A DNA stretch of 64,000 bases from a virus, in IMG/VR virus record IMGVR_UViG_3300042465_009257, positions 32,001 through 96,000 of that record, one strand, 5' to 3'. Below the pieces are notes generated by a model. The model was not told the DNA's origin and ran no database searches. It saw nothing but the letters and a program-made list of their open reading frames with translations. Positions 13,161 through 58,758 of the stretch are shown here, piece after piece. The position numbers and the translations under genes are program-made. Position 1 is the stretch's first letter; every line of letters starts with the position of its first letter.

Positions 13161-13188
13161 ATTATACTTTAAATCTTTAGTCTGTCAA
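13161..13188 (-). promoter_or_regulatory. sigma70-type promoter TTGACA-N16-TATAAT (leaderless)
   Basis: perfect consensus hexamers. Confidence 0.75.
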
Positions 13189-18047: not shown

Positions 18048-18902
18048 TTAAATTAAAGGAATAATTTCTTCCACAGTAAACTGTTGGCACTCATTCGAAA
18101 AAGGCCCATTTTCTAAAACTTTCTCATGAAGATTCTCACCGGCTTGAAGACCAATTGTTTTAATTTTAATATCTGCGCCATTTCCATATTTTAAGATCAT
18201 AGCGTGTAATAAATTGTTGATCGACATTGATTTCATTTCTGGGCAATATGGGGCAGAGTCTACAGCCTTATCCATACAGTCAAAAATCAAATTAACTGCA
18301 TCTGATACTGTCCAGAAGAATCGCGTAGCATCTAGGCTTGTTACTACTACTTCGCCGCCGCTTTGAATTAAATCCTTCCATTTGCATAATACGGAGCCAG
18401 TTGAATATAGAACATTCCCATATCTTACAATTCGATACTCGGTAGAAGAATTAAGTTTCTCAAATTGATGGAACATGCGCTCCATCATTAATTTCGTTGC
18501 CCCGTACACTCCATTAACTTGGGCCGCTTTATCTGTAGAAACACCCAAAACAAAATCCATTTGATTTTTTAGAGATTCTTCTAAAATATTCAAAGAGCCT
18601 AAGATATTAGTTTTAGTATTTTCTCTAACAAATTTTTCTGCCAATCCAACGTGTTTACTTGCAGCTAAATGAAACACTCCGTTAACACCTACCATTGCCT
18701 GCTTAACTTCAAATGGATCAGCAATATCGCCTGGATAAATTTCGACATTAGGAAGAGCCTGCTTAAGTTCAATCAATTTACCTTCATCACGGGCCATGGC
18801 TCGAACTTGTCCTCCCGCATCAATAATACGAGAGCAAAGGCTTTTGCCTAAAAACCCAGATCCACCCGTTACCAAATATTTTTTATTTTCAATTTTTAAC
18901 AT
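18048..18902 (-). CDS. UDP-GlcNAc 4,6-dehydratase-like (PseB/CapD, Polysacc_synt_2)
   Basis: TGGSGFLG, STDKA, YGATK, RYGNV, GENLHE. Confidence 0.85.
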   Translation of the reverse strand: MLKIENKKYLVTGGSGFLGKSLCSRIIDAGGQVRAMARDEGKLIELKQALPNVEIYPGDIADPFEVKQAMVGVNGVFHLAASKHVGLAEKFVRENTKTNILGSLNILEESLKNQMDFVLGVSTDKAAQVNGVYGATKLMMERMFHQFEKLNSSTEYRIVRYGNVLYSTGSVLCKWKDLIQSGGEVVVTSLDATRFFWTVSDAVNLIFDCMDKAVDSAPYCPEMKSMSINNLLHAMILKYGNGADIKIKTIGLQAGENLHEKVLENGPFSNECQQFTVEEIIPLI

Positions 18903-19220
18903 TTATTTATTTTTAATTAAATCTACCAAAGCGTCAAGATTCTTAATCTCAACCCGTTCTTTTCCAGCGCTTTGTATTGCTGTCAATTTATTCTCCCCCA
19001 TCTTATTATCAAAAATCCACCAAGCTACCCATTGATTATCATCTCCAATTTCTCGTTGAATAGCATCAGTATATTTATCAAAAAGTCTCCAACTTAAATC
19101 TCCTAAACCCATACTGACATCAGCCCCGAGAACTTTCTCCAACGCGCTCCACTTATCGTTTAGCTCTTCATGAAATTGAAGCACTGTTTTAATTTTCTCT
19201 TTAATTTCTTTACGTTTCAA
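18903..19220 (-). CDS. hypothetical protein
   Basis: TTG start overlaps the stop of the upstream gene remnant. Confidence 0.6.
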   Translation of the reverse strand: MKRKEIKEKIKTVLQFHEELNDKWSALEKVLGADVSMGLGDLSWRLFDKYTDAIQREIGDDNQWVAWWIFDNKMGENKLTAIQSAGKERVEIKNLDALVDLIKNK

Positions 19221-19342
19221 GCTTTTAATTTGTTTAAGATTTCCTCCCGCTTTTTATTCATATATTCCGCCAACTCAGTTCCCTCCAACTTATAACACTC
19301 CTCATGAACCGCGCCGCAGTATTGAGTTGTTAAAGGGATTAT
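19217..19342 (-). pseudogene. start-less 3' remnant homologous to the C-terminus of the GT at 20528..21331
   Basis: IIPLTTQYCGAVHEECYKLEGTELAEYMNKKREEILNKLKA* aligns ungapped, 14/41 identical. Confidence 0.75.
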
Positions 19343-19365
19343 ACTCCATTTCGCCCCGATGTCAA
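19338..19365 (-). promoter_or_regulatory. outward sigma70-type promoter TTGACA-N16-TATAAT at the left edge of cassette 2
   Basis: perfect hexamers. Confidence 0.7.
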
Positions 19366-19387
19366 CTTTTTTCTATTTTTTTGTAAA

Positions 19388-19419
19388 TAAAATTTCCAAC
19401 TCCTAATTTTAAATTGTAA
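19388..19419 (+). promoter_or_regulatory. class II motif TAAAATTTC-N18-TGTAA (cassette 2)
   Basis: conserved motif and spacing. Confidence 0.7.
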
Positions 19420-19444
19420 TACAATATATAACCCAACAAATTAT

Positions 19445-19618
19445 ATGCAAAAAAGATTAAAAGACCAAGAAAGAATAGACCTCGTGTCTAAATATGAAAA
19501 CGGAATGAGTTCGTGCCAACTTTCGATTGAGTATGGAATCACGGATACAGCGATTCTGGGATTGTTAAAGCGTCGTGGGATCAAGATCCGGAAAAATTCA
19601 GATTATAAGACCAAATGA
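19445..19618 (+). CDS. small HTH protein, 57 aa (MQKRLKDQERIDLVSKYENGMSSCQLSIEYGITDTAILGLLKRRGIKIRKNSDYKTK)
   Basis: manually translated; ATGA overlap with the downstream nuclease. Confidence 0.7.
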   Translation: MQKRLKDQERIDLVSKYENGMSSCQLSIEYGITDTAILGLLKRRGIKIRKNSDYKTK

Positions 19619-20553
19619 AGAAAAGTCGCGTTGAATTAAATGATGATCAAAAAACAGAGATAATCACAGCATATGGAAATGGAGAGAAGATTCCGATGCT
19701 TAGAAATAAGTTTAATATTTCGGCAGAAAGAATTTCTAATCTTCTTAAGGATGCTGGAGTGAATTTACGAAAGCGCGGTGAATTACGTACGTATTCCATA
19801 AATCAATCTTATTTTGAAGAAATAGATACCGAGGATAAATCTTATTTCTTGGGCCTTCTCTATGCCGATGGCAATCAGGGGTCCGGCCCCTCCTCCAGAG
19901 TCAGAATTGAGCTAGCAGAGACTGATAAGGATATACTAGATCGATTTAATGATTGCCTCGATACAAATAAACCGTTATATTTCAGAAATCTTCGGGAGAA
20001 AAATCCTAATTGGCAAAATACCTATACACTGGAAATAAACAGTAAGAAAATTAGCGCAGATTTGCTTAATTGGGGATTGGTTCCAGCTAAAACTTTTAAA
20101 ATTAAATTTCCAGATTTTTTAAGAGAAGACTTAATCATTCCTTTCATTCGTGGTTATGTCGATGGAGACGGTTGTTTGTTTCGATCTTCTGTAACCATCT
20201 GCGGAAATGTGGAATTTTGCGAACAGCTTCGACAAATTATATTCGATTTAACAGGTATTAAATCAGCGTTAAGACTTCCCCAAAACCATCATCCAGACTT
20301 TAGAGTATTGATTATAGAGGGCGGCTTAAACGTCAAGAAGTTTTTAACTTGGCTTTATGGTGATTCAAAAATTCATATGGAAAGGCGTTATCAAAAATAT
20401 TTATCATTCCTTGAATGGTCTCCCAAGCCAAAGAAAAATCTTCTTCGAGGAAATGATGGGGATCTTATGGGGGCGGAAGAAAAAAGAATCAGAACAAATT
20501 CTCGCGCACGGGACCGATGGCAGAGAATTAAGAGCGAGAAAGTAACGAAATGA
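19615..20553 (+). CDS. free-standing LAGLIDADG homing endonuclease with N-terminal HTH
   Basis: YFLGLLYADG and FIRGYVDGDG motifs. Confidence 0.9.
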   Translation: MKKSRVELNDDQKTEIITAYGNGEKIPMLRNKFNISAERISNLLKDAGVNLRKRGELRTYSINQSYFEEIDTEDKSYFLGLLYADGNQGSGPSSRVRIELAETDKDILDRFNDCLDTNKPLYFRNLREKNPNWQNTYTLEINSKKISADLLNWGLVPAKTFKIKFPDFLREDLIIPFIRGYVDGDGCLFRSSVTICGNVEFCEQLRQIIFDLTGIKSALRLPQNHHPDFRVLIIEGGLNVKKFLTWLYGDSKIHMERRYQKYLSFLEWSPKPKKNLLRGNDGDLMGAEEKRIRTNSRARDRWQRIKSEKVTK

Positions 20554-21331
20554 TTTGTTTTCGCTTCTCTTTTAGCTTCACCCCTAACTCCCTCCCGTTA
20601 AATTTATATAAATCTTCCCCAATCGCGCCGCACCACCCAGGAACAATCGGTAAAACCCGCATCATAGACGCCTCTGTTAAAACGCGACAATAAGATTCGA
20701 TGGTGTAAGAGGGGGCAAAAACATAACAACTGTAGTCTTTCAAGGTGTTAAGGAATTCCAGATATTCCATGTTCCCAATAATGTCAAACGGAATATTCAA
20801 CTTTTTACATAAATCCGCCGAAGACCGTTCCCCCTTATAATCCCCGCTGATTATCGCCGCTCGGCCATTTTTTGGGCTGGATTCCTTTGAGACGCAAAAT
20901 TCAATGATTTCATCAGTCCAAAGATTGCCTCCCCAACTTTCCGTGTTTTCAAATCCATTTAATTTAAAAATAGATTCTTGGAAGGAGCTTTGACAAAAAA
21001 TCTTGGCCGATTTAAGGAATTCTACGTTAATCAGATGGTCTGGTTCAACTTTGAAGTCGGCATATTGGGCAGGATTTCTGGAACCAACGAAGAGGAAATC
21101 GTGGCTAATGTGGACGACATTCCCACGAGAAATAAGAATATCCTGAGAATCGTGACTTAAACTAGCAAAATTAGATACAATATATTTATCGGCGAGGTGC
21201 GGATTCTGATTAAATTCTTGGCAAGTTTGGAAATCAGGTTTTAGTTCAGCGTAAATAATGGCATCGCAAGATTCTGCTCCGCGATAACTGCTGCCAATCG
21301 GATTATCCGCGATAAAAAGTATTTTACTCAT
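20528..21331 (-). CDS. GT-B glycosyltransferase-like protein
   Basis: ILFIAD..GAE, VFAP..ESYCRVLTEA. Confidence 0.7.
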   Translation of the reverse strand: MSKILFIADNPIGSSYRGAESCDAIIYAELKPDFQTCQEFNQNPHLADKYIVSNFASLSHDSQDILISRGNVVHISHDFLFVGSRNPAQYADFKVEPDHLINVEFLKSAKIFCQSSFQESIFKLNGFENTESWGGNLWTDEIIEFCVSKESSPKNGRAAIISGDYKGERSSADLCKKLNIPFDIIGNMEYLEFLNTLKDYSCYVFAPSYTIESYCRVLTEASMMRVLPIVPGWCGAIGEDLYKFNGRELGVKLKEKRKQIISLLSRS

Positions 21332-21338
21332 GGTTTAT

Positions 21339-21797
21339 TTAATAAGCTTTTCTCGCAGCTTGCCATAATTCCCAACTCTCTTGAACTCCACGGTTTAGAA
21401 AAACAGATCCCTCTTCATTAAATTCTGTATTCCAGCCTTTATTATTGGCATAATTTACGAATTTTGAATGAATTGAATCGAAAACAGGAGTTTCTGTATA
21501 ATAACTATTCCCATCCATTTCTGCTGGATAAGATTTAATATTTTCCAATCCGACATCTATTAGTAAAGGTTTCCAAGTTTGCACCAGCGGTGCCGAATCC
21601 CGGTCAAAATTGAACAAAGCTGAATTCCATTCTCCTTCAACCCCCTCCAAGACCAATTTAGTATAAGATCGCCCTTCTTCGCCACTAAGAATTTTATACT
21701 TTTGGCCAATAACGAAATTTCGATTTGCCATTACCTGTTCATAGTCATATCCGCCAGCACAGGTAAAAGTTGCCCAACATTCAGTGTTTTTGCTCAT
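21339..21797 (-). CDS. hypothetical protein
   Basis: TTGACA-N16-TATAAT-N6-ATG upstream. Confidence 0.65.
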   Translation of the reverse strand: MSKNTECWATFTCAGGYDYEQVMANRNFVIGQKYKILSGEEGRSYTKLVLEGVEGEWNSALFNFDRDSAPLVQTWKPLLIDVGLENIKSYPAEMDGNSYYTETPVFDSIHSKFVNYANNKGWNTEFNEEGSVFLNRGVQESWELWQAARKAY

Positions 21798-21832
21798 TTA
21801 TTGATTATACATTATTTTTTGTGATTGTCAAG

Positions 21833-21864
21833 TAAAATTTCCATTTTTCAACCTTTTGCTGTAA
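21833..21864 (+). promoter_or_regulatory. class II motif TAAAATTTC-N18-TGTAA
   Basis: perfect motif, back-to-back with a minus-strand TTGACA. Confidence 0.7.
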
Positions 21865-21872
21865 AGAGACCT

Positions 21873-22319
21873 ATGGATAACCAACCTGAAATTGACTGGG
21901 AGAAGATGACCCCAAGCCAGCGAAGCCGAAGCCAGGCTGGACTTGTTAAGGTCAATGGGTTTAAAGCTCTACTGTTTGCGATTGCCCTTGTGGCTCAACC
22001 AATTTGGCAAGCTTATTTTAAAGATCAGGATATGGCCCGCGCTTCAGAAATTATCAAAAATGAGAAACAGGCTGAATCTGCCCTCTCTCTTTCTAAAGCC
22101 GCCATTTCCCAAGTTACAATTCTTTCTTCCCAACTAGGCGAATTAAAATCTGAAAATGAGACCCTTCGCCGCGAGTTAGTCATTTTAACTGATAAATATA
22201 CAGATTTGACTCAGAAGTATAAAGATATGGAAACTTCATATGTCCAAACTCTTGAAGAAAAAAAGATACTTGAATTGCGGATTGATGAGCTTTTTAAAAA
22301 GCATAATGCTACACAATGA
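21873..22319 (+). CDS. membrane-anchored coiled-coil protein (start moved to MDNQPE)
   Basis: one TM helix followed by a long coiled coil; ATG 8 nt after TGTAA. Confidence 0.65.
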   Translation: MDNQPEIDWEKMTPSQRSRSQAGLVKVNGFKALLFAIALVAQPIWQAYFKDQDMARASEIIKNEKQAESALSLSKAAISQVTILSSQLGELKSENETLRRELVILTDKYTDLTQKYKDMETSYVQTLEEKKILELRIDELFKKHNATQ

Positions 22320-27625: not shown

Positions 27626-27657
27626 TAAAATTTCCTTCTACCAGTTTCCGCTTGTAA
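27626..27657 (+). promoter_or_regulatory. class II motif TAAAATTTC-N18-TGTAA (cassette 3)
   Basis: conserved motif and spacing. Confidence 0.7.
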
Positions 27658-27668
27658 TTAAAAGTATT

Positions 27669-54223: not shown

Positions 54224-54229
54224 ATGATA

Positions 54230-54261
54230 TTACAGTAGTTCCTAAAAGGCTGGAAATATTT
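54230..54261 (-). promoter_or_regulatory. class II motif AAATATTTC-N18-TGTAA on the minus strand
   Basis: same 18-nt spacing; 6 nt upstream of the TTG start. Confidence 0.6.
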
Positions 54262-56514: not shown

Positions 56515-56702
56515 AGATTATGGCACAATTGGCATTTCCACAAGTTGAAAATTAAATCTGCACAAATTTTTTCAGCGGCGCGACGACTTTGCATCCAAAT
56601 CAGAAGCCTAGTTCTGAAATCTTCAAAAAGTGTAGACTCATGGGTTACAAAATTTAAATAAGACAGTAAAATGCCTACGCAAATAATTAGTTCTAAATTC
56701 AT
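56406..56702 (-). CDS. DUF1360-like membrane protein
   Basis: LFEDFR, LWKCQLCHNLW, TM helices. Confidence 0.55.
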   Translation of the reverse strand: MNLELIICVGILLSYLNFVTHESTLFEDFRTRLLIWMQSRRAAEKICADLIFNLWKCQLCHNLWLSLGICLIAGFPLYIPLTSPIIAFIVKNKCLNPT

Positions 56703-57388
56703 ACATCTTGTAAACCTTCTTTTAGCTCCGAGTCAACCCATTTTTCCATTTTTCTCACCATCTCGCCGCCTTCTTTCCACAAACCAGAATTTTCCTTCAT
56801 TACACGTTCCACCTCTAAACGTGGAATCGACTCTCCATTCTCAAATTTGCTAAAATCATGCCAGCGGAATTGAACATCAGCAGCTTTGCGGATTAGTGGG
56901 TCATTTTTCTCTTCCTCGCTGTTCGCTGGCTCTAGAACATGGAATTGCCCATACCAGTCCTTGCTGTCATATCTTTCAACGTGGACGATTTTCCCACCAT
57001 TAGATTTTACAAATCCAAGCTCGTCGCCGCCGCCAAATTCCGCAAAACGCAAATCCGTAATAAATCTTACTTGCGGTCCTTCTGGGGAAAGGAGAGTATC
57101 TCGGATTTTATTCAACCAATACTGCCCCTTACTATCATTTCTGCGGAGCTTGCCATATTGAACAAGCAATGGCCGAACCCTTGTCTTCTCTTCAGTAACC
57201 TCGGTAAACGCCGAAAATCCAAACTTATCAGTTATAAAATGGTCCAGGTCTCTCTTCAATTCGTCGGCGAAAGCCCATCGCCCGCAGGTGATTCCTTCTT
57301 CTTTGAGAAAATCAGAGGCGAATCTGTAAAAAGAGTCCTTGCCCGATCGCCCGACCCCCGAAAGGGCTATAATTTTAAATGATTTCAT
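56699..57388 (-). CDS. deoxynucleoside monophosphate kinase
   Basis: SGVGRSGKD, FADELK, RPLLVQYG, ITDLRF; start MKSFK 6 nt after TATAAT. Confidence 0.85.
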   Translation of the reverse strand: MKSFKIIALSGVGRSGKDSFYRFASDFLKEEGITCGRWAFADELKRDLDHFITDKFGFSAFTEVTEEKTRVRPLLVQYGKLRRNDSKGQYWLNKIRDTLLSPEGPQVRFITDLRFAEFGGGDELGFVKSNGGKIVHVERYDSKDWYGQFHVLEPANSEEEKNDPLIRKAADVQFRWHDFSKFENGESIPRLEVERVMKENSGLWKEGGEMVRKMEKWVDSELKEGLQDV

Positions 57389-57524
57389 TCCTTTATTATA
57401 GGTGGAAACGAAAGAAAAAGTCAACCGACTGTCTCAAAATGATTATTTTCGCGAAAAAAAATGGTTGAGGCTTTCGGATTTGACCAAAAAACGGGCAGGA
57501 AAAGAATCATTAATAATTTAAAAT

Positions 57525-57556
57525 AAATTGTTCCCTTTTCTTTACCATTCCTGTAA
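57525..57556 (+). promoter_or_regulatory. class II motif variant AAATTGTTC-N18-TGTAA (cassette 5)
   Basis: TTC-N18-TGTAA conserved. Confidence 0.6.
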
Positions 57557-57570
57557 TTAAACATATAATT

Positions 57571-57729
57571 ATGAATCACCGAATTAAAACTAAACGCTAT
57601 AATTTTTGCTTTGACCCGAAAATTGACGAACTCTTGAAAAAAATTAAAGCAGAAACTTCAATAGGATTAACGAAAATTGTGGAGTTAGCTGTTGTTGATT
57701 TTGCCGAAAAGAAAGGAGTTTCTTTATGA
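57571..57729 (+). CDS. ribbon-helix-helix protein, 52 aa (MNHRIKTKRYNFCFDPKIDELLKKIKAETSIGLTKIVELAVVDFAEKKGVSL)
   Basis: manually translated; paralog; ATGA overlap with the nuclease. Confidence 0.8.
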   Translation: MNHRIKTKRYNFCFDPKIDELLKKIKAETSIGLTKIVELAVVDFAEKKGVSL

Positions 57730-58523
57730 TCGGTGTCGTTTTTAACATGAATATCGAATCTCTTGCGATTTGCCCAAGAACCAACGGAATTTACAAAATC
57801 ACAAATACGAAAACAGGAAGATTCTATATTGGCCGAGCAGAATACAAGAAAGGTTTTTTTCGCCGGTGGTATCACCATAGGTGGCAACTTAGAAAAAATA
57901 TCCATGAAAATCCTCATTTGCAAAACTCTTATAACAAATATGGAGAGTCTTGTTTCACCTTCGAGATTCTTGAAATTAAAGACTATGGAGATCCGTTAAT
58001 AGATCTAGAGTCAGAATATATCATAAATTTAAAAGCCATGTACTTTGAAGACGGGTATAATCTTACGAATGAAAGGTTTGCCGCAAAATATCCTAAAATA
58101 TACAGAGAAAATCATCATAACTCAAAAGAATTTGAACTGCTTGACCCAGAAGGAAATTTAATTAAAGGCAGGAATTTAAGTCAATTCTGTGAAGAACTAG
58201 ATGTGGGCGTAGGAGCCATGTGGGATGTCATCCACGGAGATAGAAAATCCTACAAAGGATTCAAATCTCCCAATCCCGAATTTCACGTAGTTAAAAAAGA
58301 GTATCGCTTGCTCTCGCCCGAAAAAGAATTGTTCGTATTTGACAACGCCGCAGAATTCGCGAGAAAGATAGGGGTAAACAAACGTTCTATACACAAAGTA
58401 TTAAAAGGGGAAAGGTCTAATGCCGAGGGCTACCATCTTGAAAATCCATTACCAGAACATCAAAGAAATCTTGATAATTATTTCAATAGGAAGCATCTCT
58501 CTGATCGAATCAACTTTCAATGA
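57726..58523 (+). CDS. GIY-YIG homing endonuclease with two C-terminal DNA-binding repeats
   Basis: GIYKITNTKTGRFYIGRA, R..H..L..N.H.N..LQ, E, GYNL. Confidence 0.9.
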   Translation: MIGVVFNMNIESLAICPRTNGIYKITNTKTGRFYIGRAEYKKGFFRRWYHHRWQLRKNIHENPHLQNSYNKYGESCFTFEILEIKDYGDPLIDLESEYIINLKAMYFEDGYNLTNERFAAKYPKIYRENHHNSKEFELLDPEGNLIKGRNLSQFCEELDVGVGAMWDVIHGDRKSYKGFKSPNPEFHVVKKEYRLLSPEKELFVFDNAAEFARKIGVNKRSIHKVLKGERSNAEGYHLENPLPEHQRNLDNYFNRKHLSDRINFQ

Positions 58524-58674
58524 ATCCGTCCAAATCCTTTTTTAGCTCATCAGCAAAAGCCCAGCGGCCACATGAAATTCCCTCCGTTTCTAGAAATTCC
58601 GAAGCGAAGCGGTAAAAAGAGTCCTTCCCCGCCCGACCGACGCCAGAGATTCCGATAATTTTAAATGGTTGCAT
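58510..58674 (-). pseudogene. truncated 5' copy of the dNMP kinase gene (54 aa) with its own promoter
   Basis: 41/54 aa identical to the N-terminus of 56699..57388. Confidence 0.85.
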
Positions 58675-58726
58675 TGATGAATTGTATCGGGCTTTTGTGC
58701 GGAAAGTCAATCTTAGAATTTTTAAA

Positions 58727-58758
58727 ATTAAATTCCTTTTCTGCATATTCGCCTGTAA
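58727..58758 (+). promoter_or_regulatory. class II motif ATTAAATTC-N18-TGTAA
   Basis: conserved spacing; 6 nt before the TTG of the PolA-like ORF. Confidence 0.6.

Follow-up and report, generated by a model that had tools for sequence, protein, structure and literature searches.

How a homing endonuclease gene can come to lie within a coding sequence while the interrupted gene keeps a complete reading frame is the question raised by the phage locus described here. To our knowledge, homing nucleases are thought to persist inside genes only by way of introns, inteins or the splitting of the gene. The window that we analysed is a stretch of 64,000 nucleotides (nt) comprising bases 32001-96000 of a virus record of 173,358 bp rated complete (IMG/VR record IMGVR_UViG_3300042465_009257); unless another sequence is named, positions are those of the window. 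The source is an AT-rich uncultured phage of 173 kb with related contigs in many freshwater metagenomes. Within a minus-strand operon of sugar-modifying genes, the window carries a glycosyltransferase (GT) gene of 267 amino acids (aa) (20528..21331, minus strand; protein P0001) followed by a LAGLIDADG endonuclease gene on the opposite strand and, beyond it, by a second, start-less version of the GT gene end (19217..19372, minus strand), hereafter the remnant, which runs into a 105-aa gene (18903..19220, minus strand). Very probably, a LAGLIDADG cassette of ~1.59 kb (19319-20908) replaced ~276 bp of a phage gene for a GT of the GT-B type and, in doing so, brought a foreign gene end with it.

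The arrangement that such a cassette would have entered is found in relatives that lack it. GT contexts were examined in five lineages. In comparison loci L003-L005 (GT protein P0002), L021 (P0003) and L033 (P0014), the GT gene is followed directly by a 105- or 106-aa gene through a TTGA overlap, and the junction of the two genes (...GCTTGAAACG...) in these cassette-free relatives is identical to that of the window. A preliminary description of the locus, made from the sequence alone, had taken the overlap of the TGA of the remnant with the TTG start of the 105-aa gene for the original, operon-coupled 3' end of the GT gene, and the same TTGA junction in the cassette-free loci bears this out. 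Neither a nuclease gene nor a remnant is present at any of them, as the insertion proposed in that description predicts. In L032 (P0008), a dehydratase gene comes directly after the GT gene; in the window, a UDP (uridine diphosphate)-sugar dehydratase-type gene (18048..18902, minus strand) lies 3' of the 105-aa gene, the native downstream partner of the GT gene.

Translation of 19217-19444 on the minus strand gives a 51-codon open stretch, without a start codon at its head and closed by stops further upstream, that ends in the 41 residues first remarked upon and a TGA (19217-19219). The last 41 codons (19220-19342, minus strand) align without gaps to residues 226-266 of P0001 with 14/41 residues identical, as had been noted, and constitute the only second match of the P0001 protein in the whole 173-kb genome (E=3e-5). 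The remnant TGA (19219-19217) overlaps the TTG (19220-19218) of the next gene. In sequence, the remnant shares 80% of its residues with the P0003 end, 73% with the P0002 end and 34% with the end of its own gene; it is the working GT end that is the odd one, at 34-39% identity. A tree built from the last 51 alignment columns likewise groups the remnant with P0002/P0003 (support 84/80) and places the working end far off on a long branch. At the protein level, the remnant can be followed back through ...PLTTQY to a probable ...V.I.AK, corresponding to the second half of the region of the EX7E motif discussed below, and its first eight residues find their best match in the P0007 protein. The last ~41-51 native codons have been left behind and are no longer protein-coding.

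The remnant has nonetheless kept the marks of a coding sequence, as it contains no stops and no frameshifts. Over its last 32-33 codons, the proportions of non-synonymous (pN) and synonymous (pS) differences from native ends are 0.04-0.06 and 0.38-0.70, respectively, the same as those separating one native end from another (pN 0.05, pS 0.63), so that most of the divergence of the remnant dates from the period in which it was still a working gene end. Judged by these substitution patterns, the insertion is young, and the remnant has the profile of a gene end on which selection acted until recently.

The extent of the replacement was delimited by comparison with the cassette-free loci. In blastn alignments with L003, identity of 85-93% extends from far upstream down to 20909 and resumes at 80% over 19318-19017; in those with the more distant L021, homology breaks at 20908 and 19319 and then continues through the downstream genes to 16252. 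Past 20908/9, the only blastn homology to L003 and L021 is one conserved patch of 34-35 nt. Relative to L003, ~1,590 nt (19319-20908) stand in the place of ~276 nt (codons 142-233). The proteins tell the same story: P0001 is 86% identical to P0002 over residues 1-70 and 90% over residues 71-141, then 41%, 45% and 39% over the three next segments. The phylogenetic breakpoint that the preliminary description had proposed to look for in the GT gene was found here. In the tree of the N-terminal half, P0001 is sister to P0002 (96/93); in that of the C-terminal half, P0002 and P0003 pair (99/95) and P0001 stands apart on a long branch. The G+C content (GC) of 20450-20900 is 0.43-0.44, compared to about 0.37 around it. 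The gene therefore reads as a hybrid of a native-type N-terminal domain (codons 1-141; 20909..21331, minus strand), identified by DNA and protein identity and by the tree, and of a foreign tract that, on these alignments, comprises ~126 codons (142-267; 20528..20908, minus strand), joined in frame and amounting to the whole C-terminal domain. The earlier proposal that the cassette entered the GT gene with a diverged replacement end thus stands as to the entry and the foreign end, and has to be revised as to size, since ~126 codons were replaced and not 41.

These data also bear on another explanation, in which the GT 3' end was duplicated locally in tandem, the nuclease gene was then inserted between the copies and the copies diverged in place; this would account for two homologous ends lying 1.3 kb apart on the same strand with equivalent end residues. 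We consider it highly improbable. The copy resembling the relatives is the non-coding remnant, and the divergent one is the working copy, which is 34% identical to the remnant (pS 0.70, pN 0.44); moreover, the divergent tract reaches 85 codons past the duplicated part and differs in GC.

P0001 has no match in Pfam or PHROG, and its 14 homologues are 45-67% identical to it. The nature of the host gene was approached by structure prediction. The AlphaFold2 (AF2) model built from a 14-sequence alignment (predicted local distance difference test [pLDDT] 93.7) retrieved the GT-B enzymes SenB, WaaG, HepE and GtfC with Foldseek at probability 1.0, and the C-terminal domain contains an EX7E motif, made up of residues E212 and E220, that is invariant across the family. 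On this model, the assignment of the host gene as a GT-B glycosyltransferase (GT4-like) holds by fold and motif only, not by a curated sequence family. In the model, residue 141, the last of the native half, falls where a helix (140-147) begins between the two Rossmann-like domains; since this places it in the inter-domain linker, the incoming piece corresponds to the whole C-terminal Rossmann domain and the C-terminal helix. The C-terminal domain of GT-B enzymes is generally the nucleotide-sugar donor domain. The foreign half retains the invariant residues of the family, EX7E included, and between the window and the cassette haplotype of L025 it shows 11 synonymous and 7 conservative non-synonymous differences, for a ratio of non-synonymous to synonymous substitution rates (dN/dS) of 0.16. 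The foreign half is therefore functional, on the combined evidence of the GC shift, the invariant residues, this dN/dS ratio and a breakpoint that falls in the linker of a GT-B model predicted with confidence.

The nuclease gene itself (19615..20553, plus strand) encodes a free-standing, two-motif LAGLIDADG protein of 312 aa; it is antisense and convergent to the GT gene, and its last 26 nt overlap the GT 3' end. The protein matches Pfam LAGLIDADG_3 with 31.7 bits (cutoff 22.5) and phrog_4645 ('endonuclease') at 2.9e-52, and has 21,351 representative relatives at E<=1e-3. Its first motif ends in ...YADG (D85) and its second in ...VDGDG (D183, D185); among 40 relatives, D85, G86, G184 and G186 do not vary, and conservation of D183 and D185 is at least 90%. 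A sequence search of the PDB with this protein gave no match. The AF2 model (pLDDT 92.5) shows a three-helix N-terminal helix-turn-helix (HTH), two LAGLIDADG domains and a conserved C-terminal helix, and Foldseek relates it at probability 1.0 to I-Tsp061I, I-DmoI, I-AniI and I-OnuI. With the predicted fold, the motifs and the catalytic acids all present, the nuclease looks intact and is presumably active. Upstream of the nuclease gene, and joined to it by an ATGA overlap, is a 57-aa HTH open reading frame (ORF; 19445..19618, plus strand) that matches residues 8-59 of the nuclease (BLASTP E=1e-6). Many relatives of the nuclease carry 50-110 extra N-terminal residues, representing such a repeat, fused to the nuclease. 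By this similarity, the 57-aa ORF is a paralogue of the HTH at the N-terminus of the nuclease itself. It has the appearance of a first HTH repeat detached at the ATGA junction, and may be such a DNA-binding repeat or else a small regulator. We note that a second, distant LAGLIDADG relative (26% identity over residues 8-188; open frame of 351 aa) is encoded ~2 kb before the window (G000:C1:29957-30478, plus strand).

The closest named relatives of the nuclease, at ~32% identity over ~250 residues, are encoded within introns of Staphylococcus Kayvirus phages (e.g. I-MsaII in the rec gene), and this is what would recommend a group I intron or other spliced element with the remnant as its last exon. 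No Rfam match was found on either strand of 18800-21400 at E<=1, however, and the nuclease gene is antisense to the GT gene, the GT ORF runs uninterrupted to a full-length, family-typical end, and stops close the frame upstream of the remnant. The earlier view that the gene had been repaired without splicing is accordingly upheld by a complete ORF and by the lack of a detectable group I intron. As to an artefact of assembly, the same arrangement recurs in all 15 carrier places listed, from JGI, ENA and Logan assemblies. Whether as a spliced element or as an artefact, this class of explanation is, in our view, exceedingly improbable.

The carriers, which derive from several projects and assemblers, also document the distribution of the cassette. 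Among at least 18 contigs with the exact P0001 allele, again from JGI, ENA and Logan assemblies, the cassette is present in 10/10 places listed; it is likewise present in all 4 places listed for the P0016 allele and on the single P0020 contig. Two further cassette haplotypes can be told apart from that of the window by their variants of the GT (P0016/P0019 and P0020) and of the nuclease (P0022/P0023). Elsewhere, blastn and tblastn searches of a cultured-phage collection returned no match to the region or to the GT, and two scans of IMG/VR for GT relatives, one of them with an alignment that included the remnant row, found nothing. The exact-P0001 carriers have three different gene sets downstream of the 105-aa gene and two types of upstream flank. 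Sliding identity defines in them a block of ~2.8 kb (19313..22132, unstranded) that is ~100% identical in all main-haplotype carriers and is found, from ~22132 to ~19313, in at least three phage backgrounds, whose flanks are unrelated or differ by 10-25%. Beyond the block, identity drops to 77-90% on the upstream side, whereas on the downstream side it is first 90-97% and then 67% or nothing. Two carriers illustrate the mosaic: L009 is L003-like upstream (94-100%) and turns window-like (99-100%) ~800 bp before the GT gene, and L008 resembles the window upstream but becomes L003-like (91-99%) past the end of the 105-aa gene, where the window has a different gene set. The first differences among carriers lie within the remnant, so that the left homology arm seems to be provided by the remnant together with the 105-aa gene. 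From its identity across backgrounds, the block is likely to be a recently transferred, co-converted tract. Its occurrence in several backgrounds with decay on both sides fits homing of the T4 type; at the same time, ordinary recombination is frequent at this locus.

This last point is illustrated by the comparison of L033 (2501-3298) with L003 (6001-6801) and L005. Their flanks are 98-99% identical, and the GT genes between them have no DNA homology over codons ~10-252, with about 50% protein identity; the junctions are sharp and coincide with conserved gene ends, the ~10 initial and ~14 final codons, and no nuclease gene is involved. The GT gene is a swapped, hypervariable module in this phage population. 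On the contig bearing P0007 (ENA ERZ27314275, gene table), the Y07B-like gene ahead of the GT gene is directly preceded by an IS605 OrfB/TnpB-type gene (427 aa, with a Cas12f1-like TNB domain).

Given such exchanges, two unrelated events could be envisaged, an ordinary exchange that made the hybrid at codon ~141 and a separate cassette, with a short replacement end or none, that inserted close to the 3' end of the gene and left the remnant through an imprecise join. The nuclease-free swap between L033 and L003/L005, with its edges at codons ~10 and ~253, is a precedent for the first of these events, and the foreign half and the nuclease gene have diverged unevenly between cassette haplotypes. 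Yet the known nuclease-free swaps join at the conserved gene ends and not at codon 141, the foreign tract is unbroken from codon 142 into the nuclease gene through their 26-nt overlap, and native codons 142 to ~216 are missing, one continuous foreign block separating the native-type pieces. For these reasons, we regard two separate events as unlikely and retain the replacement of the gene end by the cassette as the explanation of the locus.

Several observations nevertheless weigh against that explanation. Since the GT gene is swapped without a nuclease, the breakpoint at codon 141 could have arisen separately, by recombination of the ordinary kind. Between the window and L025, the synonymous substitution rate (dS) is 0.147 in the foreign half, 0.015 in the nuclease gene and 0.037 in the N-terminal half, with 18/381 nt differing in the foreign half (20528-20908 vs L025:4424-4804), 3/423 nt in the N-terminal half and 7/939 nt in the nuclease gene; a simple co-conversion gradient would predict the opposite. 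No donor lineage emerged from a word-index search with residues 142-267, which returned P0001 only, or from a metagenome scan, which yielded one carrier fragment and two 45% matches, so that the term foreign rests on divergence, trees and GC. Beside the closest relatives of the nuclease (L016-L020), a search for remnants of host gene ends gave nothing significant, and the remnant is thus not a constant companion of this nuclease subfamily. The two closest of these relatives (P0034 and P0036; L016:3080-4168 and L020:4001-4945; ~40% identity) are antisense to host operons, one of them in a sugar-gene cluster and the other beside DnaB, and share 17-35 nt with the 3' end of the host gene upstream. 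All comparison sequences, finally, are metagenome assemblies.

Perfect matches to TTGACA-N16-18-TATAAT number three in the 64 kb (0.05 expected), all of them on the minus strand and with a 16-nt spacer. One is the operon promoter match (21804..21831, minus strand), which lies in the native background ahead of the GT gene and of a 152-aa gene (21339..21797, minus strand) located 5' of it in operon order; it is found at about -500 from the GT start and is conserved in the cassette-free L003 and L021. Another perfect sigma70-type match (19338..19365, minus strand) lies at the junction of cassette and remnant and faces the remnant and the 105-aa gene. L003 and L021 have no counterpart of this junction match in their homologous native sequence; across all cassette carriers it is 100% conserved. 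Transcription starting ~7 nt past its -10 hexamer would turn the remnant into a leader of ~110 nt for the 105-aa gene, holding the translation start region of the latter. Read in this manner, the remnant would not be inert, its upstream edge holding the promoter match and the rest forming the leader. No terminator is predicted after the GT gene on the minus strand from 20528 to 19400. In the opposite direction, a candidate promoter of the nuclease unit, TTTCC-N17-TGTAAT (19393..19420, plus strand), is positioned 25 nt before the HTH ORF; the more general form TTTCC-N17-TGTAAW occurs 4 times in 64 kb, compared to 0.17 expected. The junction and nuclease-side motifs may both function as promoters.

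Other copies of these motifs were recorded in the window. The third perfect TTGACA-N16-TATAAT is at 13161-13188 (minus strand), and a G precedes TATAAT in all three. The remaining copies of TTTCC-N17-TGTAAW are at 21838-21865 (plus strand), back to back with the operon promoter match, at 27631-27658 (plus strand), where it precedes a second nuclease cassette, and at 54229-54256 (minus strand). An operator resembling the native target was also sought in the promoter region of the cassette, after the manner of I-TevI, and was discarded, as the best candidate (15/20 positions) was equalled in 11/60 shuffles.

Taken as a unit, the cassette carries three kinds of cargo, in operon order: a foreign in-frame C-terminal domain (codons 142-267) that keeps the enzyme whole without splicing; on the other strand, the nuclease gene, whose 3' end overlaps the new gene end, together with the small HTH ORF; and a putative two-way promoter region, with one motif directed at the nuclease unit and one perfect sigma70-type motif directed outward. 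During co-infection, the nuclease would cut the cassette-free alleles of related phages, and the break would be repaired from the cassette-bearing genome, using as homology arms the native-type N-terminal half with its upstream DNA on one side and the remnant with the 105-aa gene on the other. The hybrid allele would presumably resist cleavage.

A second locus of the window, at 56699-58746, is organized as a mirror image. There, a ribbon-helix-helix-like ORF (57571-57729, plus strand) and a GIY-YIG gene (57726-58523, plus strand) lie between two versions of one 5' end, a 78-aa ORF (58510-58746, minus strand) repeating the N-terminus of a kinase-like 241-aa gene (56699-57424, minus strand). This case of a replaced gene start (56.7-58.7 kb) suggests a general habit of such cassettes rather than a one-off. 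It is tempting to go further and see in phage homing cassettes self-repairing vehicles of domain exchange that invade coding sequences with a spare gene end or start and two-way promoters, a generalization that we offer as speculative and rather doubtful. Were it true, the cassette would drive a new sugar-donor-binding GT domain through the phage population, and a selfish element would at the same time spread a selectable change in the glycosylation chemistry of phages.

At the locus itself, the implications are more immediate. The empty sites, the three haplotypes and the several recipient backgrounds make homing visible in natural metagenome populations. The join, which falls exactly at a domain boundary, points to a route to hybrid enzymes. 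For genome annotation, start-less 'gene tails' beside nuclease genes are to be read as footprints of such insertions and not as noise. In addition, an element that supplies the rest of the gene would use a third route into coding sequence, one documented for fungal mitochondria. No description of a phage case of a cassette-borne replacement gene end was found in the literature that could be searched, although this absence is not proof that none exists.

The mitochondrial precedents are the mORF gene hybrids of Allomyces macrogynus (atp6) and Glomus sp. (atp6, atp9, cox2 and nad3) (PMC3630166). As in the phage locus, they consist of a native core, an in-frame foreign C-terminal part, an endonuclease ORF (LAGLIDADG or GIY-YIG) and a native C-terminal remnant (C*) (PMC3630166); it is the remnant, rather than the inserted end, that more closely resembles the relatives, and the structure has been explained by endonuclease-driven transfer. 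The differences are that the mORF hybrids belong to an organelle genome and have the nuclease on the same strand, downstream or fused in phase, whereas here the genome is that of a phage and the nuclease is antisense and convergent. Furthermore, the phage cassette inserted a whole enzyme domain (126 codons), its nuclease gene overlaps the new end, it has an outward promoter match that might re-drive the downstream gene, and there is population evidence of its spread into several backgrounds.

Among phages, the seg and mob genes of T4-like phages resemble the present cassette in being free-standing nuclease genes between host genes, present or absent among related phages, with flanking markers carried along (PMC2988022). 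Promoters for downstream host genes lie in or beside those cassettes, as putatively here, and segD is also antisense (PMC2988022). The T4 examples are of the GIY-YIG or HNH families and intergenic, whereas the nuclease described here is a LAGLIDADG enzyme that lies inside a coding sequence and brought its own gene end; in the review of T4 homing, neither a duplicated or replaced gene end nor a remnant is mentioned (PMC2988022). Another case is mobE in nrdA of Aeromonas phage Aeh1 (PMC2988022), also a free-standing nuclease gene inside a phage coding sequence whose host function is kept, with the difference that Aeh1 nrdA is split into two reassembling polypeptides and the GT is kept in one piece by means of a replacement domain. 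The Kayvirus nucleases share the HTH plus double-LAGLIDADG build, but reside in group I introns on the sense strand, whereas no intron is detectable here. A related logic is known from integrating elements, in that e14 and phage 21 integrate into the 3' end of the E. coli gene icd, supply a diverged substitute and leave the original end as a remnant. What sets the two apart is the means, which is site-specific recombination by an integrase into a bacterial chromosome in the case of e14 and phage 21 and would here be cleavage by a homing nuclease and repair between phage genomes.

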